A DNA stretch of 64,000 nt from Centroscyllium fabricii. Its lineage: Eukaryota. The stretch covers positions 123,876,001-123,940,000 of the forward strand of contig JBNRSN020000005.1 of assembly GCA_051313645.2 (NCBI GenBank). The letters are read 5' to 3'. The position numbers and the translations under genes are program-made. The notes beneath the pieces are model-generated. The model searched no databases. It was not told the DNA's origin and was given only the letters and a program-made list of their open reading frames with translations. Shown here piece by piece: positions 7,723 to 55,259 of the stretch. Every line of letters starts with the position of its first letter. The stretch's first letter is position 1.

Positions 7723-9835
7723 GGTATAGCAGCCAACATATGAACTCTTTAGCCTAGAAAGCAGCAGTAATCTATCAACTCCATAGCAATTGGTCTGGCA
7801 CTACTAGTGTGTTTCAGTAAAGCTCATCTTGCTCTTGCCTTCCACCTCTCCCAGCATCTCAGCTGGCAAGTGACCTAACATGTGCATCTGGCACATCAAA
7901 AGTTCCAGGCAGCAGCAGAACCTCAAACCCTACAACAAGATAGACGTGGTTTGCTTAATTCCAGTTCTGCATTACTGCTTTCACCTCAAAGTGTCACTGC
8001 TGATTGCATTCTGTGCAGCAAATCTTAATAAAGTATAGGTATGTGACACAAAAATCCAGCTTCACTCAACGATCAGGTTAGAGTTATGGGATTTTCAGTA
8101 CTCTCAGGAGTTTAATCATTTACATGAGCTAATTTCTGACCTGCTTTATTCTGTGCCTGATTTTAGTTATGTAGAATCAGCTGTAATGAATGAAAACAGT
8201 CCCTATTTCAAACTAAGTATTTCATGGTTGATGTTCCATCCTATTCAACTCAGTCTCCTCTGCAATTAGACACACATGGTCTACAAATGAAATATTAATA
8301 AGAGGTGACCCGACTATTTTCATGTAAACCTAAATAAATCGATAAAAGATTAACTGTTTTGTAGATTGCACATAAATACCACACAGCAGATTGTGCTGGA
8401 TAACATGATCTATTTAACTTGCCGTAGTTTGTTTGAAATTTAGTTTGGAAGACTGAGAGCTTTCAGAGTGGATGTTAGTTGTTCAATGTGTCATGGTGCT
8501 GACTTCAAACAAATATCACATGATCAGCTTCAGCTGTCCTACATCTTACTATTGTATCACTTTGATTTTAAATGGTATCTCAATAGGGTACTGTGCCCTT
8601 CTCAATACAGTACTCAGAGCTTGAATGCAGGGCTTATTTTGCTATTTAGCTTGTTTTTCAAATCCAGTATTTGATTTCCACAGGATTTTTGAACCTAATA
8701 GCACAATTAAATACCAAAAACCTAATTTGTAATTTTTCTTTTACAGAAACCTGTACTATTTGGGTGAGAAAAAAAAATTACAAAACGAAAACCCACAAAT
8801 ATAGCAGAACAGTATATCTGAGGATCATAGGAACAGGAGTAGGCCATTCAGCCCCTTGAGCCTGTTCTGTCACCCAGTTCGATTATGGCTGATCTGTACC
8901 TCAACTCCCTTTACCTGCCTTTGTTCCATATCACTTGATACCCTTGCCCAACAAAAATCTACCAATCTCAGTCTTGAAAATTCCAATTAGCACATTATCC
9001 ACAGCCTTTTTGGAAAAGAGTTGCAGATTTCCACTATCCTGTGTGAGAAAAAGTGCTGCCCGATTTTACTCCTAAATGATCTAGCTCTAATTTTAAGATT
9101 ATGCGTCTTTGTTCTGGATTCCCCCACGAGAACAGTTTCATTCTATCTACCCTAACGTAAACACCTCAATTAGCTCACCCCCTCAACCTTCTAAACGCAA
9201 GAGAACACAAACCAAGTTTGTGCAACCTGTCCTCATAATTTAACCTTGGAAACCTTGGTACCATTCTGGTGAGTCTGTGCTGTACCCCTTCCAAGGCCAA
9301 TATATCTTTCATGATTAAAACAGAAAATGCTGGAAAAACTCAGCAGGCCCGGCAGCATCCGCGGAGAGAGAAACACAGTTAACGTTTCAGTTTGAAGACC
9401 TTTCGTCAGAACTGGAAAAAAGCAGGAAATGGAATAGATTTTAAAGCAAGTTTAAGGGCTGGGAAAAGGGGGAGCGGATGAAAGAACAAAAGGGAAGGTC
9501 CGTGATAGGATAGAAAGCAGGAGGAATTAAGAGACATTGAGATGTTCAAGGCAAGAGGTGGTGGTAATGGGACAGGTTAAGGAACAAAGGATGGCTCCAG
9601 ATGAGGCGTGAATTGCGCTAGAATGAAAGACAGCTGCCATGTGGGAGGGGAAAAAAAGGTCAAACAAAATGTGTGGATAAAAAAATATATATATATGTGA
9701 TAGGGGCCGAGGTTATGATTTGAAATAGTTGAACTCTATGTTGAGTCCAGAGGGCTGTAGAGTGCCTAATCGAAAGATGAGGTGCTGTTCCTCGAGCTTA
9801 CGCTGAGCTTCCGTGGAGCAATGCAAGAGGCCGAG

Positions 9836-10341
9836 TGTGGTAAACCACTGTATTATATGTTTGTACCTGTTTGCATTGTGTGTATGACCTTCACTGTATG
9901 TACATAGTTTCTCATGTATAGCTTGTCTGGGCATGCCCGTGCTGACCCCACCTGTGGCTCCTCCTCCCCGGACCCAGGTATAAAGGTGACTGTCTCCCTC
10001 CCCCCAATCATTCTGGGATCAGTCAACTAGCTGGGGCATGCTCATGTCTTAGTGAATAAAATTGATGCCTTATCAATAACCTCGGAGACGAGAAGTTGTG
10101 AAGTGAACTAAAGGCTTTTATTCACTAAGACATGAGCATGCCCCAGCTAGTCGACTGATCCCAGAATGACTGGGGGGAGGGAGACAGTCACCTTTATACC
10201 TGGGTCCAGGGAGGAGGAGCCACAGGCGGAGTCAGCACGGGCATGCCCAGACAAGCTATACATGAGAAACTATGTACATACAGTGAAGGTCATACACACA
10301 ATGCAAACAGGTACAAACATATAATACAGTGGTTTACCACA
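9836..10341. mobile_element. Palindromic LTR-derived insertion (complete LTR on - plus inverted partial LTR on +)
   Basis: 226-bp inverted arms 9836-10061 / 10116-10341 with ~5 mismatches; termini TGTGGTAAACC...GGTTTACCACA; TATAAA and AATAAA in each arm; 5-bp TSD ccgag (9831-9835 / 10342-10346). Confidence 0.85.
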
Positions 10342-10555
10342 CCGAGGACGGTGAGATCTGAGTGGGAGTGGAGAATTAAAGTGACAGGCGACCGGGAGTT
10401 CAGGGTCCCCTTTAGTCCAGTCGCCTGTCATTTTTTTTGGCCTTTTTTTCTTCCCTCCCACATGGCAGCTGTCCTTCATTCTGCCAGCACAATTCATACC
10501 TCATCCAGAGCCATTCTTTGTTCCTTAACCTGTCCCATTACCACCTCCTCTTGCC

Positions 10556-10940
10556 GGTGGCACAGTGGTTAGCACTGTTGTCTCACAGCACTGGAGACCC
10601 GGGTTCAAATCCGGCCTCGGGTACTATCTGTGTGGAGTTTGCACATTCTCCCCGTGTCTGCGTGGGTTTCCTCCGGGTGCTCCGGTTTCCTCCCACAGTC
10701 CAAAGATGTGTGGGTTAGGTTGATTGGCCATGATAAATTGACCCTTAGTGTTAGGGGGATTAAATATGTGGGGTTACGGGGATAGGGTGGGATATGTGTT
10801 GATGCAGGCTCGATAGGAATCGAGGGATATGGGGAGAAGGCAGGGACAGGGTACTGAGTTTGGATGATCAGCCATGATCTCATTGAATGGCGGAGCAGGC
10901 TCGAAGGGCCGAATGTCCTACTCCTGCTCCTAGTTTCTAA
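10556..10940 (+). mobile_element. V-SINE (HE1-like) with long CR1 tail
   Basis: A box tggcacagtgg, B box ggttcaaatcc, V core, tail ggatgatcagccatgatc...ctactcctgctcctagtttcta. Confidence 0.9.
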
Positions 10941-11053
10941 TCTCTCCTGCTTTCTATCCTATCACTGACCTTCCCTTTTGTTCTTTTATCCCCTCCCCCT
11001 TTTCCCAGCCCTTAAACTTGCTTTAAAATCTATTCCATTTCCTGCTTTTTTCC

Positions 11054-11090
11054 AGTTCTGACGAAAGGTCTTCGACCTGAAAAGTTAACT
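11054..11090 (+). ncRNA. Minimal hammerhead ribozyme motif (family B)
   Basis: agtt-CTGACGA-a-AGGTC ttc GACCT-GAAA-agtt-aact; stem I agtt/aact; this copy has a C>A change in stem III; a sister copy lies on - at 9377-9413. Confidence 0.6.
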
Positions 11091-12148
11091 CTGTTTCTCT
11101 CTCCACCGATGCTGCCTGACCTGCTGAGTTTTTCCAGCATTTTCTGTTGTTATTTTGGATTTCCAGCATCCACAGTATTTTGCTATTATATCTTTCCTGA
11201 TGTTCGGTGCCCAAACCGTAACTCCAGTTGAGGTCTGACCAAAGCGCCGTACAACTAAAGCATAACTTTCTCACTTTTAAATTTCCAACCCCTTGAGATA
11301 AAGGCCAATATTCCATGATCGTTTTTGATTGCTTTTTGTACCTGTGTACTAGTTTTTAGTGATTTGTGTACCCATGGATCCCTTTGCTTATCCACAGCTC
11401 CTAGTCTCTCACCATTAAAAAAATATTCCGATGTCTTTCTCAGTTCCAAAGTGGATGATCTCACACTTCCCCACCTTGAACTCCATCTGCCATAGTTTCC
11501 CCACTCACTTAGCCTGTCTATGTTCCTTTTGCAACTTTCTGCTCCCATTAACACAACTTACTGTGCCGCTCAACTTAGTGTCATGTGCCAACTTAGATAA
11601 ACTCTATTCCTTCATCCAAGTTATTAATATATATGGTGAAAAGCTGAGGTCCCAGTACAGATCCCTGGGGAACACCACTTGTCATATCCCACCAATCAGA
11701 GTACAATCCCTATTTCCCTACTCTCTGTCTCCTATCTCCCAACCAATTACCGACCCATATCGCAAGGTTACCTCCAATTTTGTGCACTCTTATTTTTGCT
11801 TATAATCACTTGTGCACAGCCTTATTAATACCTTCTGGAAGTCCATATAGACAACATTCATAGACAATCCCCTATCCACCATGCCAGTGACCTCCTCAAA
11901 AAATTCAACTAGATTAGTCAGACATGACCTACCCGTCACAAAGGATCTTTGATCAACAGATGCTTGTCCAAGTGTTGTCACTCTGTCTCTGATAAGAAAT
12001 CCAGTAACTTTCACACATCTGATGTTAAACTGACAAGTCTGTAGTTACCTGGTGTCTCCTTCCTTTCCTTCTTAAATAATGAAGTAACATTTGCAATTTT
12101 CCAATCCAAAAACACAATTCCTGAATCTAGAGAGCTTTGGAAAATTAT

Positions 12149-13597: not shown

Positions 13598-14640
13598 GCA
13601 ACAACTTGCATTTATATAGTGCCTTCAACATAGTAAAGCATCACCAAGGTGAAAATGGACACTGGGCAGCAGCAGATGAGAGTTAGGGAACGTGAACAAA
13701 GGCAAGGTCGGAAAGGTAGGATCTGGCAAGGGTTTGGAAGGTGAGGAGAGAGGTAGGACAGTTGAGGGATTTTGGGGAGAAAGGTCTAGAGTGTTGAGCC
13801 AAGACAGTGAAGGCTCTGTCACTAGAATAGAGGAGAGCACACATTTGCACATAGAACTGCAGGTAGAGGTGGAGAGGCCAAGAATGATTGTAAATAAGGA
13901 CTGGGATCTTGAATTCAATGGGTTGGGGACAGAGAGCCAATTGAGGTTGGCAGGATGGGAATAGTCGTGGAGTGGGGCTCAGGGCAGGATCAGGTGGCAG
14001 AATTTTAGATGAGTTGGTATTTATGTAGGAAATGCTCAGCAGATCAAACAGAATTTGTGGAGAGAGAAACAGAGTTAACGTTTCAGGTCAATGACCTTTC
14101 GTCCTGAAACATTAACTCTAATTCTCTCTCCACAGATGCTGTCTGACCTGCTGAGCATTTCCAGCATTATCTGTTTTTATTTCAGATTTCCAGCATCCGC
14201 AGTATTTTGCTTTTGGAATTTATGTAGGGTGGAGCTTGGAATGTCATCAAGGAGAGTATTGGGGAAGTCAAGCCTGGAGGTGATGAAAGTATGGACGTGG
14301 GTTTAGTGGTAGGAGTGAGGTAAAAGCAGAGACAGAGGTGCAAATATGTGATCCTGGTAATGGATAAGATATTGATAGGGCTTGAAGTTCAGCTCAGGGT
14401 CAAACAGAAAAACAAGTTTGCACAGCTTCTGTGAGCAGCCAGGGAGGAAAAGGGCTATAGTGGGAGACAACAGGATAGTACTGGCCTTGCCAATGTTACG
14501 CTGGAGGAGATTCCACGACTTGATGTCAGACAAGCAGAATGGAGTCGAGGGTTGTGGCAGAGAGACAGAGCTGGATGTCATCAGCATACATATGAAAGCT
14601 TAGAACCATAGTCCAGAGTCAGTGCCCTTGGGAGATGTGA
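13598..14640 (-). mobile_element. Old L2 LINE fragment
   Basis: caacaacttgcatttatatagtgccttcaac L2 tail; degenerate LCPQPIEFKIPVLIY and FLFDPELNFKPY motifs. Confidence 0.7.
14030..14212. mobile_element. Penelope-derived fold-back (family B)
   Basis: Inverted arms turning at ~14090-14105 inside the hammerhead core; TSD ttgg(t/a)atttatgtagg at 14014-14029 / 14213-14228. Confidence 0.8.
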
Positions 14641-15933: not shown

Positions 15934-16178
15934 TGTGGCGGCACGCCCACTAAGACATCGAATCCGCCACGGGGACTCCGCGGAGCAAAGCACCGCTCAT
16001 CCGGGTGACGCGACGACGTCACCACGTCGGCCGACGCGATGACGTCACCAACCACGGGACTGTTTAAATACGATTGCTGCAAGTGGTTCACTCTCTTCCT
16101 TGTTTTGACTTAGTGTAATAAAGCTGTGTTTTCTCTAGCTCTGGCTCACGTGTGGTTCCTAGGCCTGCCGGCGCTACA
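15934..16178 (+). repeat. 5' LTR, element 1
   Basis: tgtggcggcac...gcgctaca with tttaaata and aataaa; repeated at 20138-20382. Confidence 0.97.
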
Positions 16179-16179
16179 G

Positions 16180-16191
16180 TGGTGACCCCGA
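16180..16191 (+). promoter_or_regulatory. Primer-binding site complementary to the tRNA-Trp 3' end
   Basis: tggtgaccccga 1 nt after the LTR; identical at 49545-49556. Confidence 0.85.
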
Positions 16192-16266
16192 ACTGGAACG
16201 ACTTCCAGAGAAGAAAAGCTGCCGCAGGATCTGGGACCACCAGCCAAAGACTTTTTGTTAGAAAAC

Positions 16267-19200
16267 ATGGTAAACCCAAGGAACCAAGCTCCACGAACGC
16301 AGGGAGCTGGACAGAACGCCGGACGTGGACTAACTCTACCCGAGTTCTGGGAGCAATGGCCAGTGGCCTGGTTTATGTGTATCGAGACCAGCTGCCGCAC
16401 ACATGGCATCCAAGGGGACGACCGCTACGACCTGGTGTTCTCAGTCCTACCACAGACGACGATTGATTGGATGTGGTCAAAAATACAGCGCGTGCCCGTC
16501 GCAGGCAGGTATGAAACGCTTAAGGCCGCGCTTATCAAAAAATTTACCCCCTCCCAATTCGAGCGCGACTGCCAGCTCCTCGACCTCCCCAAACTCGGGG
16601 ACGCAGACCCATCGGACCTCTTAGGTCAGATGCAAGCGCTCACACCCAACTCGGCAGCCCTCTTCCGCACCGTCTTCCTCCTTAAACTGCCCCGCGCCAT
16701 CAGACCGGCCTTGGCGGCCCTTGGCCATCGGAGCGATGACGAGCTCGGAGAGGAAGCCGACAGGCTCATGGAGGCCCAGTGCACCCGCTCAACCACGTGC
16801 GACCCTAACTCCGCATCGGTAGAGCGCAGCCAATCACCCCCCAGGCATAACTTTACGCCTGAACCTAGGGCCCCGCGCCCACCTAGACAACCGCGTCCCT
16901 CTAGCACCGGCTGGTGCTATTACCACACGCGGTTCGAACACAAAGCGCACCGCTGCGTCCAGCCATGCGCGTTCAAGCCACGGCCCAACCCAGCCCCCAC
17001 CATGTCTGTAGGCCACACAGGAGCACTGCTCTTTGCCACAAACAGCGGCACAGGCCTCAGGTTCCTCTGCGACACAGGCGCGCAGCACAGCATCGTGCCA
17101 GCCTCCCCTGCAGAAACCAAACGAGGTACCCGGGGCCCGCCACTAGCGGCAGCCAACGGCTCTAATATAAAAACGTACGGCACCCGCAAGTTAACTATTA
17201 CCCTTGCAAGCCACGCGTACACCTGGGATTTTGTAACGGCCCAGGTCACTTCACCCCTCCTCGGGGCAGACTTCCTCTGCGCCTACGGCCTACTGGTCGA
17301 TGTAACTTGGCGCCGCTTGGTAAATATAAATACCATGACGACCATCCCATGCTCCACAGGGCCCGCACTCCTGGCCCACGCGGCCGCCCAATGCCGCTCC
17401 AGGGACTCCGATGCCTACGGCACACTCCTGGCAGAGTTCCCCGCCCTTACCAACCCCACGTTCACCGCCCGCAAGGCCAAACACGGGGTAGAGCATTTTA
17501 TCACGACCACAGGCCCTCCCGTCCATGCCCAAGCCCGTAGGCTCGACCCGGCCAAGCAGGAGATCGCGCGCACCGAGTTCCGCACCATGGAGCAACTCGG
17601 TATAATCCGCCGCTCCAGCAGCCCCTGGTCCTCTCCGCTCCACATAGCCCCCAAGCCTGACGGAGGTTGGCGCCCCTGCGGCGACTACCGCCGCCTTAAC
17701 AACGCCACTACCCCGGATAGGTACCCCGTACCCCACATCCAGGATTTTTCCGCCAGATTAGCGGGTTGTACGATCTTTTCCAAGATCGACCTGGTGCGTG
17801 GCTACCACCAGGTTCCGGTGCACCCGGCGGACATTCCCAAAACGGCCGTCATTACCCCCTTCGGACTCTTCGAGTTCCTTAGGATGCCCTTCGGCCTTAA
17901 AAACGCGGCCCAGGCCTTCCAGCGCCTCATGGACTCGGTCCTACGGGACTTGAAGTTCATTTTCGTCTATTTAGACGACATCCTCGTGGCCAGCACCTCC
18001 CCCCAGGAACACCTCCTGCACCTCAGGACCCTGTTCGAACGCCTTACCGAACACGGCCTTATCTTAAGCCCCACCAAATGCAAATTCAGCCTCGAGACCA
18101 TTGACTTCCTCGGCCACCGCATTTCCCAAACAGGGGCCATACCCCTGCCCTCTAAGGTGCAGGCGGTACAAGAATTCCCCCGCCCGCACTCCATTAAGGG
18201 GCTGCAGGAATTCTTAGGCATGGTTAATTTTTATAACTGCTTTATCCCGGGAGCAGCCGCTCTCATGGCCCCCTGATACCAGGCCACCCGCGGGCAGTCC
18301 AATAAGGCTGCGGTCGAGTGGACGGCCGACGCCGCCACCGCCTTCACCGCAACTAAAACCGCCCTGGCAAACGCCACCCTCCTAGCCCACCCTAGGCCCA
18401 ACGCCAGAGTAGCCCTCACCACCGACGCCTCTGACCACGCAGTCGGGGCCGTATTTGAGCAGTGGACCGGCAACTCGTGGCAGCCCCTGGCCTTTTTCAG
18501 CCGGCAACTCCGACCCCCAGAGGTTAAATACAGCGCCTTTGATAGGGAGCTACTCGCTCTCCATCTGGCGGTGCGACATTTTCGTTTCCTCTTGGAGGGC
18601 CGCCACTTTACAGCCTTCAGCGACCACAAGCCACTCACGTTCACGATGGCTAAGGTCGCTGAACCCTGGTCGGCCAGGCAGCAGCGCCAACTCGCGGCCG
18701 TGTCGGAATTTACAACCGACATCCAGCACATTTCCGGCCGCGCCAACGTGGTCGCTGACTGCCTCTCACGCCCCACTATTAACGCCGCCCAAATGGCGGT
18801 CGATTACGCCCAGCTGGCCGCTGACCGGCTGGCCGACCCTGACCTACTCAACGCAGCAGCTAATCTCCCCGGCCTCCACTTGGCCAATATCGCGCACAGC
18901 CCCACTGCCACCGTCGTCTGCTGTGACGTATCCTTGCCGCAACCCAGGCAAGTCGTACCCCACGCTTGGAGGCGACACATATTTAGTACCCTTCATGACC
19001 TGTCCCACCCCGGCGCCCGCGCGTCCATTAAATTAATATCGGCCCGATTCGTATGGCGCGGCCTGCGCAAGGACGTTCGCGCCTGGGCCAGCTCCTGCAT
19101 AGCCTGCCAGCGCTCCAAAGTGCATAAGCACATCAGGGCACCGCTGGAAAATTTTAAAGTACCGGCCAGACGTTTTGACCATGTCCACATCGATCTCGTC

Positions 19201-20157
19201 GGGCCACTACCGCCATCCCGGGGCCACATGCACCTAATGACCATGGTCGACCGCAACACTCGCTGGCCAGAAGCAGTCCCCCTCACCGCCACCGGCACCA
19301 CGGACTTGGCCAGGGTGTTCATCGCCACCTGGGTCGCCCGCTTCGGCGTGCCCACAGACATCACCTCCGGCAGAGGACCCCAATTTACGTCGACATTATG
19401 GGCGGCCATCGCCCGTGACCTCGGGGTGACACTACAGCGAACCACCGCATACCACCCGCAGGCGAACGGCCTATGCGAACGGTTCCACCGCTCGATGAAG
19501 GCATCACTACGGGCCACGCTAAAAGATGCATCGTGGACCGACCGCCTTCCATGGGTCCTCCTCGGGCTGCGCTCGGCAGTCAAAGAAGACCTCAACGCCT
19601 CGGCAGCGGAGCTCGTCTACGGCCAAACTTTAACGGTGCCGGGCGAGTTCCTGGCTGAGCCCAACGCTCCCTGGTCAGCCGACCAGTATTTAAAAGATTT
19701 CGCCAACCCGGCACGAGCTTTCCAGCCACTACCAGTGGCCCGGCACGGAGAGCCAGCAGCTCGGGTACCTGACAACATTAAAAATGCGAAATTCGTGTTC
19801 GTCCGGCGCGACGGACACCGATCTCCACTACAGCCACCTTACGATGGCCCCTACAGAGTGCTTCGGGCGGGAGCTAAAGCTTTCGAGTTACAAATGGGCA
19901 ACAGGACTGACACTGTGACAATAGACCGGCTCAAGCCGGCACACGTGATAGCGGGTGAGACTACGGTCCCCGCACAACCACCACAACGTGGTCGCCCTCC
20001 CGCAACAAAGCCCACCCACACTCCACCGCAGAACCAGGAGCAACGAACAACACGGTCCGACCGCATCATCCGGCCGCCCCAACGGCACAACATAGACTCT
20101 GTCACTATTCCTCCCGGATGGATTCTGGGGGGAGCCGTGTGGCGGCACGCCCACTAA
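16267..20157 (+). pseudogene. Single-frame gag-pol (Gag CHCC, PR, RT, RNase H, IN) with one premature TGA at 18274-18276
   Basis: [18 protein letters not shown]; LCDTGAQ; FVYLDD; TDASD; HHCC zinc finger; IN HIDLVG..TSGRG (catalytic D>G)..CERFH; GPY motif. ORFs 16255-18276 and 18571-20157 share one frame. Confidence 0.93.
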
Positions 20158-20382
20158 GACATCGAATCCGCCACGGGGACTCCGCGGAGCAAAGCACCGC
20201 TCATCCGGGTGACGCGACGACGTCACCACGTCGGCCGACGCGATGACGTCACCAACCGCGGGACTGTTTAAATACGATTGCTGCGAGTGGTTCACTCTCT
20301 TCCTTGTTTTGACTTAGTGTAATAAAGCTGTGTTTTCTCTAGCTCTGGCTCACGTGTGGTTCCTAGGCCTGCCGGCGCTACA
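20138..20382 (+). repeat. 3' LTR, element 1
   Basis: 243/245 identical to the 5' LTR by eye. Confidence 0.97.
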
Positions 20383-25429: not shown

Positions 25430-26940
25430 GGAGCACAGGGGAAAGGACTGCACAGTAGACTGGAGTTGGAGGAGTGAATGCTGGGAAGTGCGACTGGAGA
25501 AGGTAGCAGAAATAGGGTGGACTAGGGCCCTGAAGTGATTTGAAGTTGCAGATGAGGATTTTAAAGTTTACACACTGGGGATAAGGAATAAGTGGAGTCG
25601 GCGAGGATAGGGTGCCTAGTACCGTGTGTTTGTGTGGTTGCAGAGTTATAGATCAGTTGGAGTTTGTGTAGGATGAAGCTGTTAAGACTGGTGAGGAAAA
25701 TGTTGGAGATGTTGATAAAAATGTGGATGAGGTTTTCAGCAGCAGTGAAAGTAAGGTGCTCCAGCGGTGAATGTACGGCGGTGGGCAGTGTTCCAGAGGT
25801 GAATGTACAGCGAGGACAGTGTTCCAGAGGTGAATGTACGGCGAGGACAGTGTTCCAGAGGTGAATGTACAGTGGGGGCAATGTTCCAGAGGTGAATGTA
25901 CGGTGGGGGCAGTGTTCCAGAGGTGAATGTACAGCGAGGACAGTGTTCCAGAGGTGAATGTACAGCGAGGACAGTGTTCCAGAGGTGAATGTACAGCGAG
26001 GACAGTGTTCCAGAGGTGAATGTACGGCGAGGACAGTGTTCCAGAGGTGAATGTACAGTGGGGGCAGTGTTCCAGAGGTGAATGTACAGTGAGGACAGTG
26101 TTCCAGAGGTGAATGTACAGTGGGGGCAATGTTCCAGAGGTGAATGTACGGTGGGGGCAATGTTCCAGAGGTGAATGTACAGTGGGGGCAGTGTTCCAGC
26201 GGTGAATATATGGTGGGGGCAATGTTCCAGAGGTGAATGTACAGTGGGGGTAGTGTTCCAGAGGTGAATGTACGGTGGGGGCAGTGTTCCAGAGGTGAAT
26301 GTACAGTGGGGGCAGTGTTCCAGAGGTGAATGCACGGTGGGGGCAATGTTCCAGAGGTGAATGTACGGTGGGGGCAATGTTCCAGAGGTGAATGTACAGT
26401 GGGGGCAGTGTTCCAGAGGTGAATGTACGGTGGGGGCAATGTTCCAGAGGTGAATGTACGGTGGGGGCAATGTTCCAGAGGTGAATGTGCGGTGGGGGCA
26501 GTGTTCCAGAGGTGAATGCACGGTGGGGGCAATGTTCCAGAGGTGAATGTACGGTGGGGGCAGTGTTCCAGAGGTGAATGTACAGTGGGGGCAATGTTCC
26601 AGAGGTGAATGTACGGTGGGGGCAATGTTCCAGAGGTGAATGTACAGTGGGGGCAATGTTCCAGAGGTGAATGTACAGTGGGGGCAGTGTTCCAGAGGTG
26701 AATGTACGGCGAGGATAGTGTTCCAGAGGTGAATGTACAGTGGGGGCAATGTTCCAGAGGTGAATGTACGGCGAGGATAGTGTTCCAGAGGTCAATGCAC
26801 AGTGGGGGCAGTGTTCCAGAGGTGAATGCACGGTGGGGGCAGTGTTCCAGAGGTGAATGTAAGTGGTCTCATTGATGGGCCAGATGTGTTATTTGAAACG
26901 TAGCTCACAGTCAAACAGAACACCAAGGATGCACACCTTT
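25430..26940 (-). mobile_element. Old L2 fragment hosting the minisatellite
   Basis: Minus-strand remnant AAENLIHIFI..SNIFLTSL..FILHKLQLIYNSA; continues after 26860 (gctcacagtcaaacagaacaccaagg). Confidence 0.6.
25757..26860. repeat. 31-bp minisatellite, ~35 copies
   Basis: Unit gttccagaggtgaatgtac(a/g)g(tgggg/cgag)...ca(a/g)t with period 31; explains the three 31-aa-repeat ORFs on -. Confidence 0.97.
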
Positions 26941-33888: not shown

Positions 33889-34053
33889 ATAGCAAAATAC
33901 TGCAGATGCTGGAAATCCGAAATAACAGAAAACGCTGGAGAAATTCAGCAGGCCAGGCAGCATCGGTGGAGAGAGAAACAGAGTTAACGTTAACTCTGTT
34001 TCTCTCTCCACCGATGTTGCCTGGCCTGCTGAATTTCTCCAGCGTTTTCTGTT
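33889..34053. mobile_element. Penelope-derived near-perfect palindrome (family B)
   Basis: ~64-bp arms with no spacer, centred on gttaac|gttaac (33988/33989); 14-bp TSD gtctttttgatact at 33875-33888 / 34054-34067. Confidence 0.88.
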
Positions 34054-35316: not shown

Positions 35317-36010
35317 ACAATAACAACAGAAAATGCTGGAAAAACTCAGCAGGCAAGGCAGTATCGGTGGAGAGAAATAGAGTTGACGTTTCGGGTTCAG
35401 ACCCTTCATCAAAACTGCAGAATGAAACACAAGCAGGAAGGCAGGGGGTGGGGGGGGGCGAGGGGGGGGGGGAAAGGAACAAAGAGAGACAGCACAGAGA
35501 GAAAAGACTGAGACAAGATACTGTGGACAGGAGACAGTAGTTGATTAAATGTGAAAACGCTGGCAGAGCAAGAAGTGGCTGCCACAATAGAGAAAAGGCC
35601 AAATAAACATTGTAGATAAAAAAAGGTAAAAATATGATGGGGGCCAGAGTTATGATCTGAAATTGTTGAACTCGATATTGAGTCCGGAAGGCTGTAAAGT
35701 GCCTAATCGGAAGAGGAGGTGTTGTTCCTCGAGTCTACGCTGAGCTTCTGAGGAACAATGTAATAGGCCAAGGACAGAGAGATCAGAGTGGGAGTGAAAC
35801 GGAGAATTAAAGTGACAGGCGACCGGGAGCTTGGAGTCCCCCTCTATTTCTCTCCACCGATGCTGCCTGGCCTGCTGAGTTTTCCAGCATTTTCTGTTGT
35901 TATTTCGGATTTCCAGCATCTGCAGTATTTTGCTAATCATATCAACTCTCTTTCTCTCTCCGCAGATGCTGCCTGACCGGCTGAGTATTTACAGCATTTT
36001 CTGTTTTTAT
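35317..36010. mobile_element. Penelope-like element: GIY-YIG end plus inverted and tandem pseudo-LTR pieces
   Basis: ORF 35650-35940(-) LPVACHFNSPFHSHSDLSVLGLLHCSSEAQRRLEEQHLLFRLGTLQPSGLNIEFNNFRS; hammerhead remnant ttgatga-agggt..accc-gaaac-gtc on -. Confidence 0.85.
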
Positions 36011-36729: not shown

Positions 36730-38397
36730 CAATTTGTGGATGATACCACATTGGGGGGGGGGGGGGATAGTCAATACTGAGGAGGACTGCAATAAATTAC
36801 AGGAGGACATTAATAAACTTGCAGAATGGGCATATAATTGGCAAATGAAGTTCAACACAGATAAATGTGAAGTATTACATTTTGGTAGGAAGAATAGGGT
36901 GGTCACTTATCACTTGGAGGGTGCGAGTCTAGGTAGGGTAGAGGAACAAAGGGATCTAGAGTACAAATACACAAATCACTAAAAGTTGCAACACAGGTTA
37001 GCAAGGCCATAAAAAAAGCAAACCAAGCACTAGGGTTTATTTCTAGAGGGATAAAATTAAAAAATAGGGAAGTTATGCTAAACTTGTATCGAACCTTGGT
37101 TAGACCACACTTGGAGAACTGCATACAGTTCTGGTCACCATATTATAAAAAGGATATAGAGGCACTGGAGAGGGTGCAGAGACGATTTACAAGGATAAAA
37201 CCAGAAATGCGAGAGTATACCTATCAGGAAAGAATGAACAGGCTGGGTCTCTTTTCTTTTGAAAAAAGGCTGAGGGCTGACCTAATAGAGGTCTTTAAAA
37301 TTATGAAAGGTTTTGATAGAATGGATAGAGAGAGAATGGGGGGGAATTTCATGTCCACGTGAGGCAGGGTTTTTGGCGGCTCGGCCAGCAAAATAGCGCA
37401 ACCAGTGGGTCGCGAACCCCCCCCCCCCGCCGGATCCCCGCCGCTTTATCATTTTCCCCCGCCCTGATTCCCCACCCCGAAACCTTCCTGCTGTCGGCCG
37501 GCAGGGATGTCACCTCGTTAAGGGCCCTTAATTGGCATGTTTAATGCCATTTTAAGGGCCCTCAGCCATTTTGAGCCGTTTCCCACCCTAACCCCGTCAC
37601 CTTTCCCCTTCAAGGTGTGAAGGACATGTTGCCAAATGCTTTGCATGCCTCCAGCACCTTAGAGGAGTAAGTTACTCCGTGTTGGCTGCACCAGCTGTGA
37701 GCAAAAACTGAGAAATCTCAGCTTTGCACATTTCCTGACAGCCAGTGCGAGCTGTCCAGGATTCGGAGCCCGCCCACCCACCTGTCAGTCACCAGCACTT
37801 GACCTTTCCCATTGGTTCCATTCGACTGTGATGTCACAGTGGAGTGTTTCCATGGGAACTGTCAACAACCAGTGCTGGAACTGTCAATCAAACTCCTCAC
37901 AGCCCCGATGCAGCCCGACTCGATTGAGTTAATTACCACCCGCTGCCGCCGGCAGGGATTTAACAACCCAATTGAATTAAAATTGCGTGGCCTTCCAATG
38001 TGTTTGGGCGGGCGGGACAGGAACCCACCCAGACCAATCCCCGCCAGGTTCCCGCACTTCCGGCAAAGTCCCCCCCTATGTTTCCACTTGTGGAGAAGAA
38101 CATAACTAGAGGCCATCAATATAAGATAGTGATCAAGAAATCCAATAGGTAATTCACAAGAAACGTCTTTACCCAGAGAGTGGTGAGAATGTGGAACTTG
38201 CTACCATGGAGTGGTTGAAGCGAATAGTATAGATGCATTTAAGGGGAGGCTAGACAAGCATATGAGGGAGAAGGGAATAGAAGGTTATGCTGATAGATTT
38301 AGAGGAGAAAAGACGGGAGGGGGCTAGAGTGAAGCATAAACACCGGCATGGACTGGTTGGGCCGAATGGCCTGTTTCTGTGTTGTATAGCCAATGTA
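36730..38397 (+). mobile_element. 5'-truncated CR1 LINE (RT C-terminus and tail)
   Basis: QFVDDT, LQEDINKLAEWAYNWQMKFNTDKCEVLHFG, LYRTLVRPHLENCIQFWSP..DIEALERVQRRFTR. Confidence 0.92.
37339..38077 (+). mobile_element. Non-autonomous DNA transposon (PIF/Harbinger-like), copy 1
   Basis: Termini ggggggaattt...aaagtccccccct; 3-bp TSD atg restores the host CR1 (gagagaatgtttccac). Confidence 0.8.
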
Positions 38398-40228: not shown

Positions 40229-40995
40229 TGGGGGGGATTTTGCCGGAAGTACGGGAACCTGGCGGGGATTGGTCTGGGCGGGTTCCTGTCCCGCCTTGCC
40301 AAAGACCTGGGAAGCCCACGCAATTTTCATTTAATTGAGTTGTTAAATCCCCGCCGGCGGCAGCGGGTGGTAATTGACTCAATCGAGTCAGGCTGCAGCG
40401 GGGCTGCGAGCAGTTTGATTGACAGTTCCAGCACTGGTTGTTGACAGTTCCCATGGAAATACTCCAGTGACATCACAGTCGAGTGGAACCAATGGGAAAG
40501 GTCAAGTGCTGGTGACTGACAGGTGGGCGGGCGGGCTCCGAATCCTTGACAGCTCGCACCGGCTGTGAGGAAATGTGCAAAGCTGAGATTTCTCAGCTTT
40601 TGCCCACAGCTGGTGCAGCCACCACGGAGTAACTTACTCCTCTAAGGTGCTGGAGGCATGCCAAGCATTTGGCAGCATGTCCGTCACACCTTGAAGGAGA
40701 AAGTAATGACCAGCACTGTGCTCCAGCGGGGTTTAAGGTGACGGGGTCAGGGTGGGAAACGGCTCAAAATGGCTGAGGGCCCTTAAAATGGCATTAAACA
40801 TGGCAATTAAGGGCCCTTAACGAGGTGACAATCCATCCCCACCAGCCGCCGGCAGGAAGGTTTCGGGGCGTGGAATCAGGGCGGGGGAAAATGATAAAGC
40901 GGCGGGGATCCGGCGGGCTCGTGACTCACTGGTTGCGCTATTTTGCCAGCCGAGCCGCCGAAAACCCCGCCACACGGGGACATGAAATTCCCCCG
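40229..40995 (-). mobile_element. Non-autonomous DNA transposon (PIF/Harbinger-like), copy 2, inverted
   Basis: Close reverse complement of 37339-38077 plus a ~28-bp extra segment near 40700; TSD ctc (40226-40228 / 40996-40998). Confidence 0.8.
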
Positions 40996-41238
40996 CTCTA
41001 TTTCTATTTGACCACAAAAGGGTATCACAGCCAAGCCTGATTCTGCCCTTCACCTGTAATCCACACACATGCACTTTCCAGCAAAAGTAATTGAATAGAT
41101 ATCAGTAGGAACCTTGCCTTATTTTTTTCCTTTTCTTGTGGCCAAATGTAAAACCCCTACTGCTGCCTAGACTGAGATCAGCTAAACCAGTAATGATGAG
41201 ACGATCAAACTGGGACCTTCCTGGTCTCTATGACCCAG

Positions 41239-41549: not shown

Positions 41550-44500
41550 TGTAGCAGAGCCACTAGGGGGAGACATCCGATCTCCCCAGAGAGTCAGAAT
41601 CCACAACACAGTTGGTCCTGCCCCTGTTTCCCCATTGGTGAGTTGGACCAACATTTCTGATCCCTGATTGGTCCTGCGGGCTGTCAGTCAAAAGCCCCAT
41701 CATGCTTTGCGTTTTCGCATCTTTTGTTAGTCAGTCGTTTTCTGGATCGAACCAATAAAGACCTGTTTACGTTTGCTCTGCATTTCTCGACATTATTATT
41801 GATTTCGACGAGTAGGGAACTGCCGTTCCCTACAATTGCTGACCCCCTAATGTTAGCCCCTGAAGGTGCTGACCTGAACGCGAGCCCCGAGGCCGGGCAA
41901 TGCGATAGGCCGTCGACGATCAGCCTCCCTGCCTTTTGGGAGCACCAGGCAGCCGCTTGGTTTTTGCAGACAGAGGCCCAGTTCCAGCTCAAGCGCCTCG
42001 ATAGCGATGAGGACCGCTACCTCCTTGTCGTTTCGGCTCTGCCTAGCCACGTTGCCACTGACATCGTGGACCTGCTGCGGGACCCGCCTCAAACTAACAG
42101 GTACGCTGCCGTTTAGAGCCGACTGCTCCAGGCTCACGACTTACCAGAAGATGTAAGAGCCCGGCAACTCCTCGAACTATTGGAATTAGGCGAATCCACG
42201 CCTAATGAATCGCATGCTAGCCCTCCTCGGGGACCACAAAGACTGTCCTTTGTTTTGGGCGCTATTTATCAGTCTGCTCCCACAACCTGTGCAATTGGCT
42301 TTAGCGAACGTTAGAGGCGGGACTTACGCCGAACTGGCCACTGCCGCGGACCGCGTTTGCCTTTGCCCACCCATCCGGACGACGTCCAAAAGACGGCAGT
42401 GATTACACCTTTTGGACTTTCCGAATTCCTACGTATGCCCTTTGGTTTAAAGAATGCGGCACAGCTTTTCCAACGGTTGATGGACTCTGTCCTTCGGGAC
42501 TTTGACTTTTTATTTGTATATCTCGATGACATATTGGTTGCTAGCACGGATGAATCTCAGCATGTTGTGCATTTGCGTGCTCTTTTTCAGAGATTGGCCC
42601 ATCATGGCCTAATTGTAAACCCAGTTAAATATCAATTCGGCCTTGCAGCAATTGATTTTTTAGGGCATCACATCTCCCCGGCGGGAGCCATCCCCATACC
42701 CTCTAAAGGTTAAAGCGGTCACTGATTTCCCCCAGCCCAGCACGGTTAAGGCACTCCAGGAATTTCTGGGAATGGTAAATTTTTGTCACCAGTTCATTCC
42801 CAGGGCCACCTCCATCTTGCGCCCCCTGTACGAGGCCACCAGGGGCAAGACTGGCATGGATAGTCTTCAGTGGTCGGCCGAAATGGCTGAGGCATTTCAC
42901 CTCGCTAAGTCAGCCCTGGCTGAAGCCACCCTTTTGACCCACCCCATCCCGGGCGCCCCACTGTTGCTCACGACGGACGCCTCAGATCATGCCATTGGCG
43001 CCGTTCAGCAACAATGGGTTAACGGCGCCTGGCAGCCCTTCGCATTTTTTAGTCGCCAACTGCGGAAAAGTGAGCTCTCGTATAGCTCTTTTTCTTGCGG
43101 TGCTGCACTTTCGTTTTCTCCTGGAGGGCCGTCCGTTCACTGTTTACATGGACCATAAGCCCCTCATTTTCGCTATCTCCAAGGTCACAGAACCCTGGTC
43201 AGGTCGCCAACAGTGCCATCTGAATTTCATTTCCGAATTTACCACGGACATTCATCACGTGTCCGGTAAGGACAATGTCGTTGCCGACTGCCTCTCCCGT
43301 CCTACCATCTACGCGGTCCACGTTGGTGTCGATTACGCAGAGGTGGCGCGCGCCCAGCAGGCGGACGCCGAGCTGCAGGCTCTTCGTTCTGCCTCCACCA
43401 GCCTGACCCTAGCGGATGTTCATTTTCAGGCAGCCGGCACAACCCTCGTGTGACGTTTCCGTGCCCAACCCTCGGCCCTTAGTGCCCACCTCCAGGCGCA
43501 AGTACGTCTTTAGTTTGGTCCATGGGCTCTCCCACCCGGGCATGCAAGCTTCTCAGAAGCTCATGTCCGCCAAATTTGTCTGGCCAGGCCTACATAAAGA
43601 TGTGCGGAACTGGACTAACACCTGCCAGGACTGCCAACGCGCTAAGGTCCATCAGCACACTTAGGCTCCCCTGCAAAATTTTCCGGTGCCCGAGCAACGG
43701 TTCGATCATGTTCATGTTGACTTGGTTGGCCCCTTGCCCCCATCACAGGGTTTCACCCATCTCTTTACCATCGTGGACCACACTACCAGGTGGCCAGAGG
43801 TCGTACCCCTTACTTCCACGACTTCGGCCAATGTGGCACGTGTCTTTATTTTTTCATGGGTGGCCCGGTTTGGGGTCCCGTCGGACATGACCTCCGACAG
43901 GGGCCCACAGTTTACCTCCCAGCTGTGGAGCACAATTGCCACTGGCCTGGGGACGCAGCTGCACCGCACGACTGCTTATCATCCGCAGGCAAACGGTATT
44001 TGCGAGCGGTTCCACCGTGCCCTCAAGGCCTCACTTCGTGCCAGCCTGGTCGACGCCAACTGGTTAGACAGGCTCCCTTGGGTCCTTCTGGGATTATGCG
44101 CCGCCCCCAAGGACGACCTCGGCTTGTCTTCCGCCGAACTCGTGTTTGGACAACCCTTGCGCATTACAGGAGAGTTCCTCCCCTCCGTCACCGAGAATTG
44201 GTCAGCCGGTGAGCAGCTCGCTCGGCACAACAACGCTGCACATAGTTTCCTTCCTGTACCCACCTCTCGGCACCGGGCCCGCTCGTCCCACGTGCCCACT
44301 GAGCTCCGCCGAGCGCAATTTGTTTTTGTGCGTCGTGAAGCCCATAGAACCCCTTTATAGGCGCCTTAGACAGGCCCTTTCAGGGTGCTAGAGGCCGGTG
44401 ACAAGTCTTTTCTCCTCGCGGTTGGGGGCCGACAGGACCGCGTTTCCATTGACCGGCTTAAGCCGGCCCATTTGGACCCTGTTCCGCCTGAACAGGGTTC

Positions 44501-45065
44501 CTGGGTCATGCCTTAAGAGCGTTTCTTTGTCCCGGTCGTGCCCCCAGCGGGTCCCGCGTTAATTAGACCCTCGTGTACGGCTCCACCTCCTACTCTGCCT
44601 CCGGATTGCTCTCCGGTCTCACCCCCTGCTCCTGCGGAACATCCGCCCTCCAGTCCTGTTTGCGGATCGCCGCTGGCGCCCCCTGCACCAGCGGGCTATC
44701 GCACTCGCAGCGGCCACCTCGTCATGCCTCCTCGGAGGTTGACCTATCATGTCCATGCGGATTCTGGGGGGGGCGTATGTAGCAGAGCCACTAGGGGGAG
44801 ACATCCCGATCTCCCCAAAGAGTCAGAATCCACAACAGAGAGTTGGTCCCGCCCCTGTTTCTCCATTGGTGAATTGGACCAACATTTCTGGTCCCTGATT
44901 GGTCCTGCGGGCTGTCCATCAAAAGCCCCATCATGCTTTGCGGTTTTGCGCCTTTTGTTAGTCAGTCATTTTCTGGATCGAACCAATAAAGACCTGTTTA
45001 CGTTTGCTCTGCATTTCTCGACATTATTATTGATTTTGACGAGTAGGGAACTGCCGTTCCCTACA
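41550..45065 (+). mobile_element. Internally deleted Gypsy LTR retrotransposon (CsRn1-like), element 2
   Basis: LTRs 41550-41834 and 44778-45065 (tgtag..ctaca, roughly 15 differences); TSD atac; degenerate PBS ttgctgacccc; fragmented Gag, RT (YLDD), RNase H and IN. Confidence 0.95.
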
Positions 45066-45759
45066 ATACTGGTGAATTTCACCCACACTGGTGCACCCAA
45101 CAACAAACATGTACAGTGAACCACCTTTACACTGCATCATATTGGATAATGATGCTCGCACAACTTTTGCTGTTGCAACCAAAATAAATCAAGACACTTT
45201 CTACATGAATACAGCGACAGAACCGTAGCAGTAAAGAGTATTATGTGCACCTGACCATTCCAGAAACCATTGCAGTTACAGCCAGGAGGGTTCACAGGTA
45301 ACAGGCTGAATGTTACCACGCTGCACAAAAACTTGAATTTAAAAGTGCCAAGTACAAGGGAAACAACACTGGAGTGATAAATAGAACATATTATACTTCA
45401 ACACGCAGAAAAACATTGCAGATTAAGTAAATATTCCCTTTCACTTTAAAACCAGTACAAATCTAAATACATACTAATGTAGTCACCTTCTCTATAGTCT
45501 GAGATAGTGAATAACAATAAATAGAAAATACCGCAATAATGCATAAAAACTATTTCTGCACAATCTCTCTAGTGTCAGAATTATTCTGTGCAACAGTAAT
45601 AGGGTGATTGAAGATGAGAATACTGCTTGATCAATGTATAATATATTAGCGTGATCGCTTTCCACAGCTTTACAAAGTACCATGTTATTGGCAAGCTGTG
45701 AGAGGGCCTAGCACTGGAAGGATTCTCCACAAGGTGGTACTGTACTCTAATCAGGGGCT

Positions 45760-49295: not shown

Positions 49296-52200
49296 TGTGG
49301 CGACACACCCACCAAAGACATCGAATCCGCCTCGGGAGTACTGCGGGGCACAGCCCCGCCCATCGGGTGACGTGATGACGTCACCGCGACTTCCGGCGTG
49401 ATGAGATCACCAACCGCAGGCGCTTTAAATAAGCCTGCTCCAGGTGGTTCAGTCTCTTTTCCACCTGGCCACGCAATGTAATAAAACAAGTGTTTTCTGT
49501 CCTTCTGGCTCCCGCGTGGTTCTTCAGGCCTGCATGCACTACAGTGGTGACCCCGAACTTGGAACATCTTCCAAGAGAAAAGAAAAGAAGCAGTTGCTGC
49601 AGGACTGAGGGCCAAGCTGCCTCAGAGCACTTCCACCAAACATGCCTTCAGGAAACCAAGCTTCTCGAACTCAAAGTCTTGGCCAGAACCCCGGGCACAG
49701 ATTAACTCTACCGGAGTTCTGGGAGCTACGCCCAGCAGCATGGTTCCTGTGTATCGAAACCAGCTGCCGCATCCATGACGTCCAGGGGGATGATCGCTAC
49801 GACCTGGTCTTCTCGGCCCTACCGCAGTCCACAGTCGATCAGATGTGGCTGACGTTACAGCGTGCAGCAGGCAGGTACGAATTCCTTAAGGCCGCGCTGC
49901 TTAAAAAATTCACCCCCTCCCAATTTGAGCGCGACTGCCAGCTCATCAACCTCCCCGAACTCGGGGACGCAGACCCATCGGACCTTTGGGCCCAAATGGA
50001 AGCGCTGAACTCAGACTCAGCCTCCCTCAAGCGCACCATGTTCCTCCTCAAACTGTCCCCCTCCATCAGACCGGCCCTGACGGCCCTCTGCCACCGGACA
50101 GGGGACCAGCTGGCTGAGGAGGCCGACAAGCTCATGATGGCCGAGCGCTCCCGCTCCGCTACGTGCGAGCTCTCTGCCACGGCAGCCGAGCCCCACTACG
50201 CACACCCCAGGTCCGACCCCAGGCCAACGCGACCCCGCAAAAGGCCGCGCACATCGGGCACCGGCTGGTGCTATTACCACATGCGGTTTGAGTCCAAAGC
50301 GCACCGCTGCGTCCAGCCCTGCACTTTCAAACCCCAGCCCGGCTCAAGCCCCACCATGTCTGTAGGCCACTCTGGAGCACTGCTCTACGCCACAGACAGC
50401 GGCACAGGCCTCCGGTTCCTCTGCGACACAGGCGCACAGCACAGCATTGTGCCAGCCTCCCCTGCAGAAGCCAAAAAAGGCACCCGGGGCCCGCCACTCG
50501 AAGCCGCAAACGGCTCAGAAATAAAGACGTACGGCACCCGCAAGCTCACCATCAAGCTCGCAGGCCACACGTACCACTGGGACTTTATCACCGCCCAGGT
50601 CAAACTACCCCTCCTCGGGGCAGATTTCCTCTGCGCCCACGGCCTCCTGGTCGACATGACCCGGTGCCGCCTGGTCGACATCCACAACATGTCGACCATC
50701 CCATGCTCCACAGGGCCGGCACACCAGGCCCACGCAGCGGCACACTGCCGAGCCCGGAACTCCGACACGTACGGCACGCTCCTCGCGGAGTTCCCAGCCC
50801 TCACCAACCCCACCTTCACAGCCCGCACGGCCAAACACGGGGTGGAGCATTTCATCACCACCACCGACCCTCCCGTCCATGCCCACGCCCGCAGGCTGGA
50901 CCCGGCCAAACTGGAGATCGCGCGTACCGAGTTCCGCACCATGGAACAACTCGGCATAATCCGCCGCTCCAACAGCCCCTGGGCCTCCCCCCTCCACATC
51001 GCCCCCAAGCCGGGCGGTGGTTGGCGCCCCTGCAGAGACTACCGCCGCCTCAACAACGCCACCACCCCAGACAGGTACCCCGTCCCCCACATCCAAGATT
51101 TCTCCGCCAGGCTAGCGGGCTGCACGATCTTCTCTCAGATCGACCTGGTACGGGGCTACCACCAGGTCCCGGTGCACCCGGCGGATGTCCCTAAGACAGC
51201 CGTCATCACCCCTTTCGGACTGTTCGAATTCCTCCGAATGCCCTTCGGACTTAAAAACGCGGCCCAGGCCTTCCAACGCCTCATGGACTCAGTCCTACGG
51301 GACTTGCAGTTCATGTTCGTCTACCTAGACTACATCCTCGTGGCCAGCAGCTCCCCCCATGAACACCTCCTGCACCTCAGGACCCTGTTCCAACGCCTGA
51401 CCGAACACGGTCTCATATTAAGCCCCTCTAAATGCCAATTTGGCCTCGAGACCATCGACTTCCTCGGCCACCGCATTTCCCAAACCGGGGCCATACCCCT
51501 GCCCTCCAAGGTGCAGGCGGTCCAGGAATTCCCCCACCCGCACTCCATCAAGGGGCTGCAGGAATTCCTAGGGATGGTTAATTTTTATAACCGCTTCATC
51601 CCAGGAGCAGCCGCTCTCATGGCACCCCTATACCAGGCCACACGCGGGCAGTCCGGCAAAACTGCGGTCGAGTGGACGGCCGAAGCCACCACCGCCTTCA
51701 CCGCAACCAAAACCGCCCTGGCCAACGCCACACTCCTAGCCCACCCTAGGCCCAACGCCAGAGTGGCCCTCACCACCGACGCCTCCGACCACGCGGTCGG
51801 AGCTGTCTTTGAGCAGTGGACCGGCAACTCCTGGCAATCCCTGGCCTTTTTCAGCCGGCAACTTCGGCCCCCAGAGGTTAAGTACAGCGCCTTCGATAGG
51901 GAGCTACTCGCTCTCTACCTCTCAGTGCACCACTTTCGCTTCCTCTTGGAGGGCCGCCATTTTACAGCCTTCGTCGATCACAAGCCACTCGTGTCCGCAA
52001 TGGCTAAGATCGCCGAACCCTGGTCGGCCAGGCAGCAGCGCCAGCTCGCGGCCGTGTCGTAATTTACCACCGACATACAGCACATCTCCGGCCGCGACAA
52101 CGTGGTTGCTGACTGCCTGTCACGTCCCACCATTAACGCCGTCCAAACGGCGGTCGACTACGCCAAACTGGCAACCGACCAACTGGCAGACCCAGACCTG

Positions 52201-53748
52201 CTCGACCCGGCTACCAACCTCCCCGGCCTGCGCTTGGCCAGCGTAGCACATGGGCCCGCAGCCACCGTAGTCTGCTGCGACGTCTCCTTACCGCAGCCCA
52301 GACCCGTCGTCCCCCACGCATGGAGGCGACACATTTTCGAGACCCTCCATGGCCTGTCCCACCCTGGCACCCGCGCGTCCATCAAGCTAATTTCGTCACG
52401 TTTCGTGTGGCGCGGCCTGCGCAAGGATGTCCGCGCCTGGACCGACGCCTGCACTGCCTGCCAGCGCGCCAAGGTGCACAAGCACATCAAGGCACCGCTG
52501 GAAACGTTCACCATGCCAGCTAGACGCTTCGACCACGTCCACATCGACCTGGTCGGACCACTACCGCCATCACGGGGCCACACACACGTCATGACCATGG
52601 TCGACCGCAGCACTCGCTGGCCAGAAGCGGTCCCCCTCGTTGCTACCAGCACCACGGACCTGGCCAGAGCTTTCATCACCACCTGGGTCGCTCATTTCGG
52701 CGTACCCACCGACATTACGTCGGACAGAGGCCCCCAATTCACGTCGACACTATGGGCGACCATCGCCCGCGACCTTGGGGTAACCCTACACCGAACCACC
52801 GCTTACCACCCACAGTCTAATGGACTCTGCGAACGGTTCCACCGCTCCATGAAAGCATCCCTACGGGCCAGTCTTAAGGACTCAACTTGGACAGACTGCC
52901 TGCCCTGGGTAATGCTCGGCCTACGCTCAGCGGCCAAAGAAGACCTGCACGCCTCAGCAGCGGAACTCGTCTACGGCCAAACACTAACGGTGCCAGGCGA
53001 GTTCCTCGCAGAGCCAAACGCTCCCTGGTCAGCTGACCAATACCTAAAGGACTTTACCAACCCGGCACGAGCGTTCAAGCCGCTACCGGTGGCCCGGCAC
53101 GGAGAGCCGGCAGCACGTGTACCGGACTGCATTAAAAACGCCAAGTATGTGTTTGTCCGGCACGACGCACATCGATCGCCACTACAGCCACCGTATGATG
53201 GACCCTACAGAGTGCTTCGGGCGGGAGCTAAAGCTTTCCAACTGCAAATGGGCAACAGGACTGAAACCGTTTCAATAGACCGGTTGAAACCGGCACACGT
53301 AATAGCGGGTGAGACAACAGTCCCCGCGCAACCACCGAAGCGCGGACGCCCTCCCGCACCAACACCCGCCCACACTCCACCGCAGAACAAGGAGCAGCGC
53401 ACGACACATGCCGGCCGCATCATCCGGCCACCACAACGCCTCTCATAAGACTCTTTTTTATTTTATTTTATTCTCCCGTACAGATTCTGGGGGGAAGCTA
53501 TATGGCGACACGCCCACCAAAGACATCGAATCCACCTCGGGAGTACTGCGGGGCACAGCCCCGCCCATCGGGTGATGTGATGACGTCACCGCGACTTCCG
53601 GCGTGATGAGATCACCAACCGCGGGCGCTTTAAATAAGCCTGCTCCAGGTGGTTCAGTCTCTTTTCCACCTGGCCACGCAATGTAATAAAACAAGTGTTT
53701 TCTGTCCTTCTGGCTCCCGCGTGGTTCTTCAGGCCTGCATGCACTACA
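49296..53748 (+). mobile_element. Full-length Gypsy LTR retrotransposon (CsRn1-like), element 3
   Basis: 248-bp LTRs 49296-49543 and 53501-53748 (5 differences; the 3' LTR starts TA); TSD acct; PBS tggtgaccccga at 49545; PPT ggggggaag. Confidence 0.97.
49642..53448 (+). pseudogene. Single-frame gag-pol with one premature TAA at 52060-52062
   Basis: [18 protein letters not shown]; LCDTGAQ; RT YLDY (catalytic D>Y); TAA where element 1 has GAA; IN D,D,E residues intact; the two ORFs share one frame. Confidence 0.93.
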
Positions 53749-55203: not shown

Positions 55204-55259
55204 CATGAAAAAGGTAGTTGGATGCTGAGCTGCTCTATCACTTGTCTGGAAACTCATAC

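Follow-up and report, generated by a model that had tools for sequence, protein, structure and literature searches.

A palindromic LTR insert with two U3 ends as a probable by-product of self-primed reverse transcription in a Ty3/gypsy lineage

How can an LTR come to lie in a genome as an inverted repeat, with the same U3-type end on both sides and one 5-bp TSD around the whole? The question is raised by a palindrome of 506 bases at positions 9836-10341 of the window, by which we mean the whole 64-kb stretch of DNA that was analyzed. It is built of two 226-nt arms and a 54-nt spacer (10062-10115). On the - strand, a complete 279-nt LTR, with TATAAA at position 144, an Inr-like TCATTC at 173 and AATAAA at 220, is followed by one A and then, save for the arm mismatches given below, by the exact complement of its own positions 226 back to 1. 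At either outer end, the insert stops exactly at the LTR start (U3-type). An earlier note on this DNA had described a snap-back palindrome with a 226+54+226 structure, in which a complete LTR with TATAAA and AATAAA is followed by 1 nt and an inverted copy; all of this is borne out by the arm coordinates and by the low number of mismatches between the arms (5/226). The features of the insert, and of the Penelope-like sequences needed to understand its insertion site, are:

9308-11153, no strand assigned: host, a palindromic 3' fragment of a Penelope-like element
9831-9835, + strand: left TSD copy, CCGAG, with an empty site in the paralogue
9836-10061, + strand: left arm (the copied-back one), LTR 1-226, comprising U3 and the part of R that ends with the final A of AATAAAA
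10048-10061, - strand: tract at the PBS position, complementary to LTR 213-226, the first 14 nt past the LTR end and the spacer base
10062, - strand: single spacer base between the LTR-terminal CA and the tract, likewise 1 nt in the relatives L002, L005 and L007
10063-10115, - strand: LTR 227-279 (distal R and U5), single-copy, forming the loop; a 5-bp helix (GCCTT/AAGGC) adjoins the arm
10063-10341 (read 10341 to 10063), - strand: complete LTR of 279 nt, TGTGG...GCATCA, its identity suggested by its architecture and a junction match; parent not found
10116-10129, - strand: putative self-primer tract, LTR 213-226, including AATAAA (10122 to 10117)
10116-10341, - strand: right arm, positions 1-226 of the complete LTR
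10164-10198, - strand: TATAAA (10198 to 10193) and Inr-like TCATTC (10169 to 10164), as motif matches only
10342-10346, + strand: right TSD copy, CCGAG
35593-35841, + strand: paralogous copy of the Penelope-like repeat; site empty, frame unbroken

Signs of a Ty3/gypsy LTR in the 279-nt unit are the TG...CA ends, AATAAA near the 3' end and a TATA-like box, following motif criteria given in PMC3601003. The distance from AATAAA to the LTR end is 54 nt, compared with 56 and 58 nt in two true LTRs of the window. The insert is short and non-coding, with TIRs and a TSD, and has the general form of a MITE; neither a PPT nor internal element sequence is present in it. With Rfam, the palindrome gave miRNA models only, far under the gathering score, as any long hairpin does. 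The 5-bp helix beside the arm reached P 0.009-0.03 in shuffles; in a relaxed test it was not significant (P 0.14-0.49). The insert is not a solo LTR, as the earlier note had also maintained, since it has two U3 outer ends and contains sequence from beyond the LTR.

The insertion site tells how many events are involved. The paralogous Penelope-like copy aligns with both flanks of the insert (81% and 82%) and carries the TSD 5-mer once, as CCAAG at 35768-35772, and so provides an independent empty site. Because the 5-mer is single there, CCGAG can be regarded as a true 5-bp duplication made by one insertion, and the former reading of a single unit with two U3 ends and one TSD stands. Its length falls within the 4-6 bp of integrase-type TSDs. 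Oppositely oriented LTRs have been proposed by Bao et al. as a source of TIRs (PMC2836005), and the arms of the insert do differ at 5/226 sites, as might be expected if two members of the same family had inserted separately at one site, in opposite orientation, with a subsequent deletion. Such a history is highly improbable, since there is just one TSD. Furthermore, the junction lies 1 nt past the CA and coincides with the final A of AATAAAA, which is the register of intact relatives (see below) and one that a chance deletion would not choose.

The host Penelope-like fragment has arms at about 9319-9671 and 10429-11148, which are 88-94% alike, and its palindrome is older than the insert. A coding remnant of the host is found on the - strand, from 10430 to 9716, and a separate repeat is inserted at 10555-10939. 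Removal of the insert had been said to restore a Penelope ORF. Locally this is correct, as the host frame is continuous over the insertion site, but a 5-nt gap relative to the paralogue, about 30 nt away, shifts the frame, and the host is only a short 3' fragment. The frame of the paralogue has one homologue, P0124 (60% identity), whose motifs we take to be an RT thumb and a GIY-YIG nuclease, hence the Penelope label of the host element. Pfam gave no GIY-YIG or Penelope match for P0124. Other palindromes of short Penelope-like or related repeat ends occur at 1001-1336, 14028-14162, 33924-34053 and 54745-55206, and the host at 9308-11153 is of the same kind.

The five mismatches between the arms are all transitions (9947, 9950, 9969, 10007 and 10025) and correspond to a divergence of 2.2% (95% interval 0.7-5.1). 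Three of the five are at CpG, and the arms contain just four CpG sites. These mismatches are relevant to the possibility that a fold-back artefact of the assembly or the library was laid over a solo LTR. Palindromes are error-prone in assembly, and this structure is known from assembled sequence alone. Yet the five transitions, with their share of CpG sites, resemble decay in a genome, the host element continues correctly on either side of the insert, and a solo LTR would possess neither the additional nucleotide nor the tract at the PBS position. The chance that we are dealing with an artefact is thus very small. All five mismatches are G.T pairs on the - strand, at arm positions 112-190 (9947-10025 and 10152-10230 of the window). 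This one-sided pattern (two-sided P 0.06) is not seen in seven other inverted repeats of the window (18 versus 20), and is probably due to chance.

Within the 64-kb window, neither a second copy of the arm nor a parent of the 279-nt LTR was found. The exact 22-nt junction had 0 matches in the GTDB contigs, and natural stop-to-stop frames of the LTR, used as protein queries, yielded no candidate parent. Three weak protein matches to these frames (32-43% identity) were dismissed, the one inspected being an unrelated repeat protein. The three gypsy elements of the window were also rejected as parents: they show no DNA match to the arm, and two of them have a TGG-type PBS and 4-bp TSDs. These two are near-complete Ty3/gypsy elements (15934-20382 and 49296-53748), about 82% alike, with LTR pairs at 99% and 98%, and their 5' end resembles the CsRN1 motif of PMC3601003. 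The third is decayed (approximately 41550-45067), and the reading frames of the window's gypsy elements are interrupted. No tRNA genes were detected in the window. Among its other repeats are a sequence of about 750 bp with G-run ends, present as two copies in opposite orientation (37329-38076 and 40230-41005) that lie 2.1 kb apart and are probably two MITE insertions, and a 31-bp tandem array of at least 35 units (25659-26900).

Evidence on the junction comes from a related gypsy lineage. We scanned GTDB contigs with a short motif from the RNase H of a gypsy group in which such self-complementary junctions were expected. The choice of the group was guided by this expectation, but loci were selected by the protein motif, not by LTR sequence. 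The scan gave eight loci (L001-L008), which are eukaryotic Ty3/gypsy elements mis-binned in bacterial assemblies. A gag start with upstream DNA, and with it a readable 5' end, is available in three of the eight, and these three represent three different families. In each of them, the LTR-terminal CA is followed by 1 nt, by 13-14 nt that can pair with the poly(A)-signal region of the same element, and then by gag:

L002, 3216-3360, + strand: LTR/tract junction region, exact self-complement of 13 nt, loop of 50 nt
L005, 3713 to 3486, - strand: LTR/tract junction region, exact self-complement of 14 nt, loop of 51 nt
L007, 10691 to 10470, - strand: LTR/tract junction region, exact self-complement of 14 nt, loop of 39 nt

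The complement falls on the AATAAA/ATTAAA region of the LTR, the corresponding loop of the palindrome is 54 nt, and the gag-side ATG lies 22-29 nt past the LTR in the three relatives. As a control, the self-complement past the LTR is just 5-8 nt long in the window's three other gypsy elements. When all CA positions of the GTDB loci and the window were considered, 12 out of 15,736 had a 13-nt self-complement upstream: three are the junctions, five lie in the palindrome, two in a long inverted repeat of L008, and two were unplaced. L007 is full length, with 195-nt LTRs (TGATG...CATCA), a PPT and a 5-bp TSD (ATGAT). Because this TSD bounds the element, the end of its LTR can be set at CATCA. The 20-nt junction of L007 (up to 2 edits) has a single match on both strands of the 64-kb window, at 10067, which is the junction of the palindrome; matches were found in 0 of 60 shuffled windows. 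As the relatives carry the tract at this place and the L007 junction matches, the palindrome junction likely copies a natural primer-site tract. The length of 14 nt that we give for the tract at 10048-10061 was borrowed from the 13-14 nt of the relatives.

BLASTN revealed no LTR-wide similarity between the window LTR and these relatives, and its membership in the lineage therefore rests on the layout and the junction of about 20 nt. The former expectation that parents carry a self-complementary tract at the PBS position holds for the related lineage, in all three testable loci of the eight; the parent family itself was not found. The same junction bears on the idea that the insert is a non-autonomous DNA transposon of the Ginger/TDD type, that is, a MITE with 226-bp TIRs whose LTR-like motifs are due to coincidence or old ancestry. 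Ginger1 has TIRs of 40-270 bp and TGTNR termini (PMC2836005), and both the arm length and the ends of the insert would fit. However, metazoan Ginger TSDs are 4 bp long (CCGG or CCGT, AT-rich for Ginger2), in contrast to the 5-bp CCGAG found here, and within Ginger/TDD 5-bp TSDs are described in the same source from Dictyostelium TDD-4/5 only. Moreover, the spacer ends in a gypsy LTR/PBS junction and there is one copy in the window, so that a Ginger-type origin has hardly any probability.

The elements L002, L005 and L007 are approximately 3.8-4.1 kb long and have one long gag-protease-RT-RNase H-integrase frame with the RT motif YLDN. The post-LTR sequence does not start with TGG, and is complementary to the element's own LTR. 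A search of three frames of the relatives, including the complete pol frame of L002, gave no Chromo hit at E 0.05. The link to the Tf1/sushi group drawn in the earlier note is therefore not supported and is kept as an analogy only, the chromodomain test having been applied to the relatives of the parent. With about 27-31% identity to the L005 pol, the window's three gypsy elements belong to a separate lineage. At E 1e-50, 788 protein relatives of the lineage were counted among 8000 scored. The 120 listed of these 788 include four species names (a sea anemone, an isopod, a damselfly and a tunicate) and no fish-named relatives. In the literature covered, including PMC6238403 and PMC8556966, we found neither a published clade name for this lineage nor work on its priming mode. 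From the complementarity, we infer that these elements may be self-priming; additionally or alternatively, the tract might serve to hide the poly(A) signal at the 5' end. The bacterial assemblies of GTDB contain repeat-rich DNA besides these eukaryotic gypsy elements. Among the scanned loci, the L005 polyprotein bears the NCBI name of a DDE-type integrase from bacteria (P0004), the ends of L002 and of L005 overlap, as happens in circular or collapsed contigs, and L008 holds two copies of an unrelated, MITE-like palindromic element of about 500-600 bp (2381-2880 and approximately 10819-11400).

Taken together, the palindrome is probably a reverse-transcription by-product of a self-priming, non-chromovirus Ty3/gypsy element, inserted by the element's own integrase. 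The tract would act as the PBS for a self-primer ending at the last A of AATAAAA. Plus-strand strong-stop DNA would then consist of U3-R-U5, 1 nt and a copy of the primer and, because the tract would be the PBS for a self-primer, its 3' tail would be complementary to its own R, 54 nt upstream. In place of the second strand transfer, this tail could prime on R, either that of the same molecule, which would form a hairpin with a loop of 54 nt (in cis), or that of another strong-stop molecule (in trans). RT would copy back to the PPT-defined U3 end and yield the - strand that is observed. Subsequently, two strands might pair into a duplex that has U3 at both ends and a bubble in its centre; alternatively, each of two hairpins might supply one end. 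Two molecules would be needed at this step, since a single hairpin has one 3' end. Integrase would join the ends with a 5-bp stagger, and replication or repair would fix one strand. Tf1 is primed by the 5' end of its RNA, whereas the promoter motifs (TATA/Inr) of the palindrome LTR place the start at LTR 173-175, about 40 nt upstream of the tract (at about 213). The Tf1 primer is reportedly not removed during reverse transcription.

Short inverted repeats also permit fold-back priming in DNA repair, a recognised route, and the same natural inverted repeat could have been used, with the same product, in a chromosomal rearrangement after a normal insertion. A break just inside the element would be followed by fold-back at the 14-nt inverted repeat, a repair polymerase would copy the LTR backwards and rejoin at the far TSD, and the internal region and the 3' LTR would be deleted. 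At the return point there is a 3-nt microhomology, made up of CA and the first TSD base, that would suit such a rearrangement. Nevertheless, copying would have to halt exactly at the U3 end and the deletion exactly at the far CA; neither a duplicated flank nor filler is seen, and integrase accounts for both exact ends together. We therefore consider a chromosomal origin unlikely.

If reverse transcription is indeed the source, the palindrome would be a fossil of a reverse-transcription intermediate in a little-studied group of animal retrotransposons. The 3' end of the primer would be fixed to the nucleotide, a primer copy in plus-strand DNA would be implied, and a gypsy integrase would be able to insert a substrate with two U3 ends in the germ line. 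The insert itself is probably a dead end, because a PPT and internal sequence are absent from it and it is not known to have a way of being excised; having neither PPT nor 3' R, it should be unable to retrotranspose by the usual path. Such by-products are expected to recur in the lineage rather than to amplify. Given one copy in the window and the lack of a PPT or internal sequence, a one-off or recurrent by-product is more likely than a mobile MITE family.

A bolder reading is that a widespread non-chromovirus animal gypsy lineage primes itself with a poly(A)-signal tract, and, as a regular side reaction, gives rise to integrated LTR palindromes that have U3 at both ends. We consider this possible but rather doubtful. 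If true, there would be an overlooked class of TIR-bearing, MITE-shaped elements of retrotransposon make, which are probably filed as unclassified DNA transposons with 5-bp TSDs. The palindromes would also be sources of hairpin RNA against their own family, and would show concretely how the terminal inverted repeats of Ginger-type DNA transposons could arise from LTRs in a single step. According to Bao et al., it is unclear how LTR retrotransposons turned into DNA transposons with TIRs, and two chance insertions were offered as a solution (PMC2836005). Fold-back at a self-priming site would give inverted LTR ends in one step; the palindrome copy holds no integrase gene. LTRs may be the source of some "MITEs" that have TG...CA ends and TSDs of 5 bp, which calls for caution in classifying them. 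If the palindrome is a single accident, its value lies mainly in being evidence for the priming mode. In general terms, it is an aberrant LTR-retrotransposon integration product, and the indirect support for its origin by self-priming is good. In literature that covered subscription journals thinly, we found no description of an LTR palindrome that had been integrated with U3 at both ends, nor of poly(A)-signal self-priming in a non-chromovirus animal gypsy lineage; this silence is weak evidence of absence.

Among known structures, a solo LTR resembles the insert in having LTR sequence inside one 5-bp TSD and no internal genes. It differs in its outer ends, one U3 and one U5, whereas the insert has two U3 ends and a junction from the PBS position. 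Ginger1 and Ginger2/TDD share the TG...CA termini, the long TIRs and a gypsy-type integrase chemistry (PMC2836005), but they encode a transposase and are multi-copy, in contrast to this non-coding insert with one copy seen. Penelope-like elements with inverted terminal repeats are a further parallel, as their palindromes are ascribed to self-priming in reverse transcription (PMC3846280); the insert, however, contains no Penelope sequence and has integrase-type ends.

The closest likeness is to L002, L005 and L007, with which the insert shares the LTR end, the 1-nt spacer, the register of the tract, the loop size and the 5-bp TSD, as well as, in the case of L007, near-identical junction letters. 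Unlike the insert, these are ordinary elements with direct LTRs. Self-priming from a PBS right after the LTR-terminal CA is established for Tf1 (PMC10085805, PMC4600332), and outside the Tf1/sushi group plant Copia TAR elements have been predicted to prime themselves (PMC6317226). In Tf1, Tf2, Tj1 and sushi-ichi, as here, the PBS lies just past the LTR-terminal CA, and its complement is found in the LTR transcript of the same element instead of a tRNA (PMC10085805, PMC4600332). In Tf1, a three-duplex "pretzel" surrounds the PBS; the palindrome has one flanking helix of 5 bp, and because L002, L005 and L007 have only 1-2 bp at the corresponding place, its position is not conserved. The differences from Tf1/sushi are that these relatives have no chromodomain, and that the partner of the tract spans the poly(A) signal.
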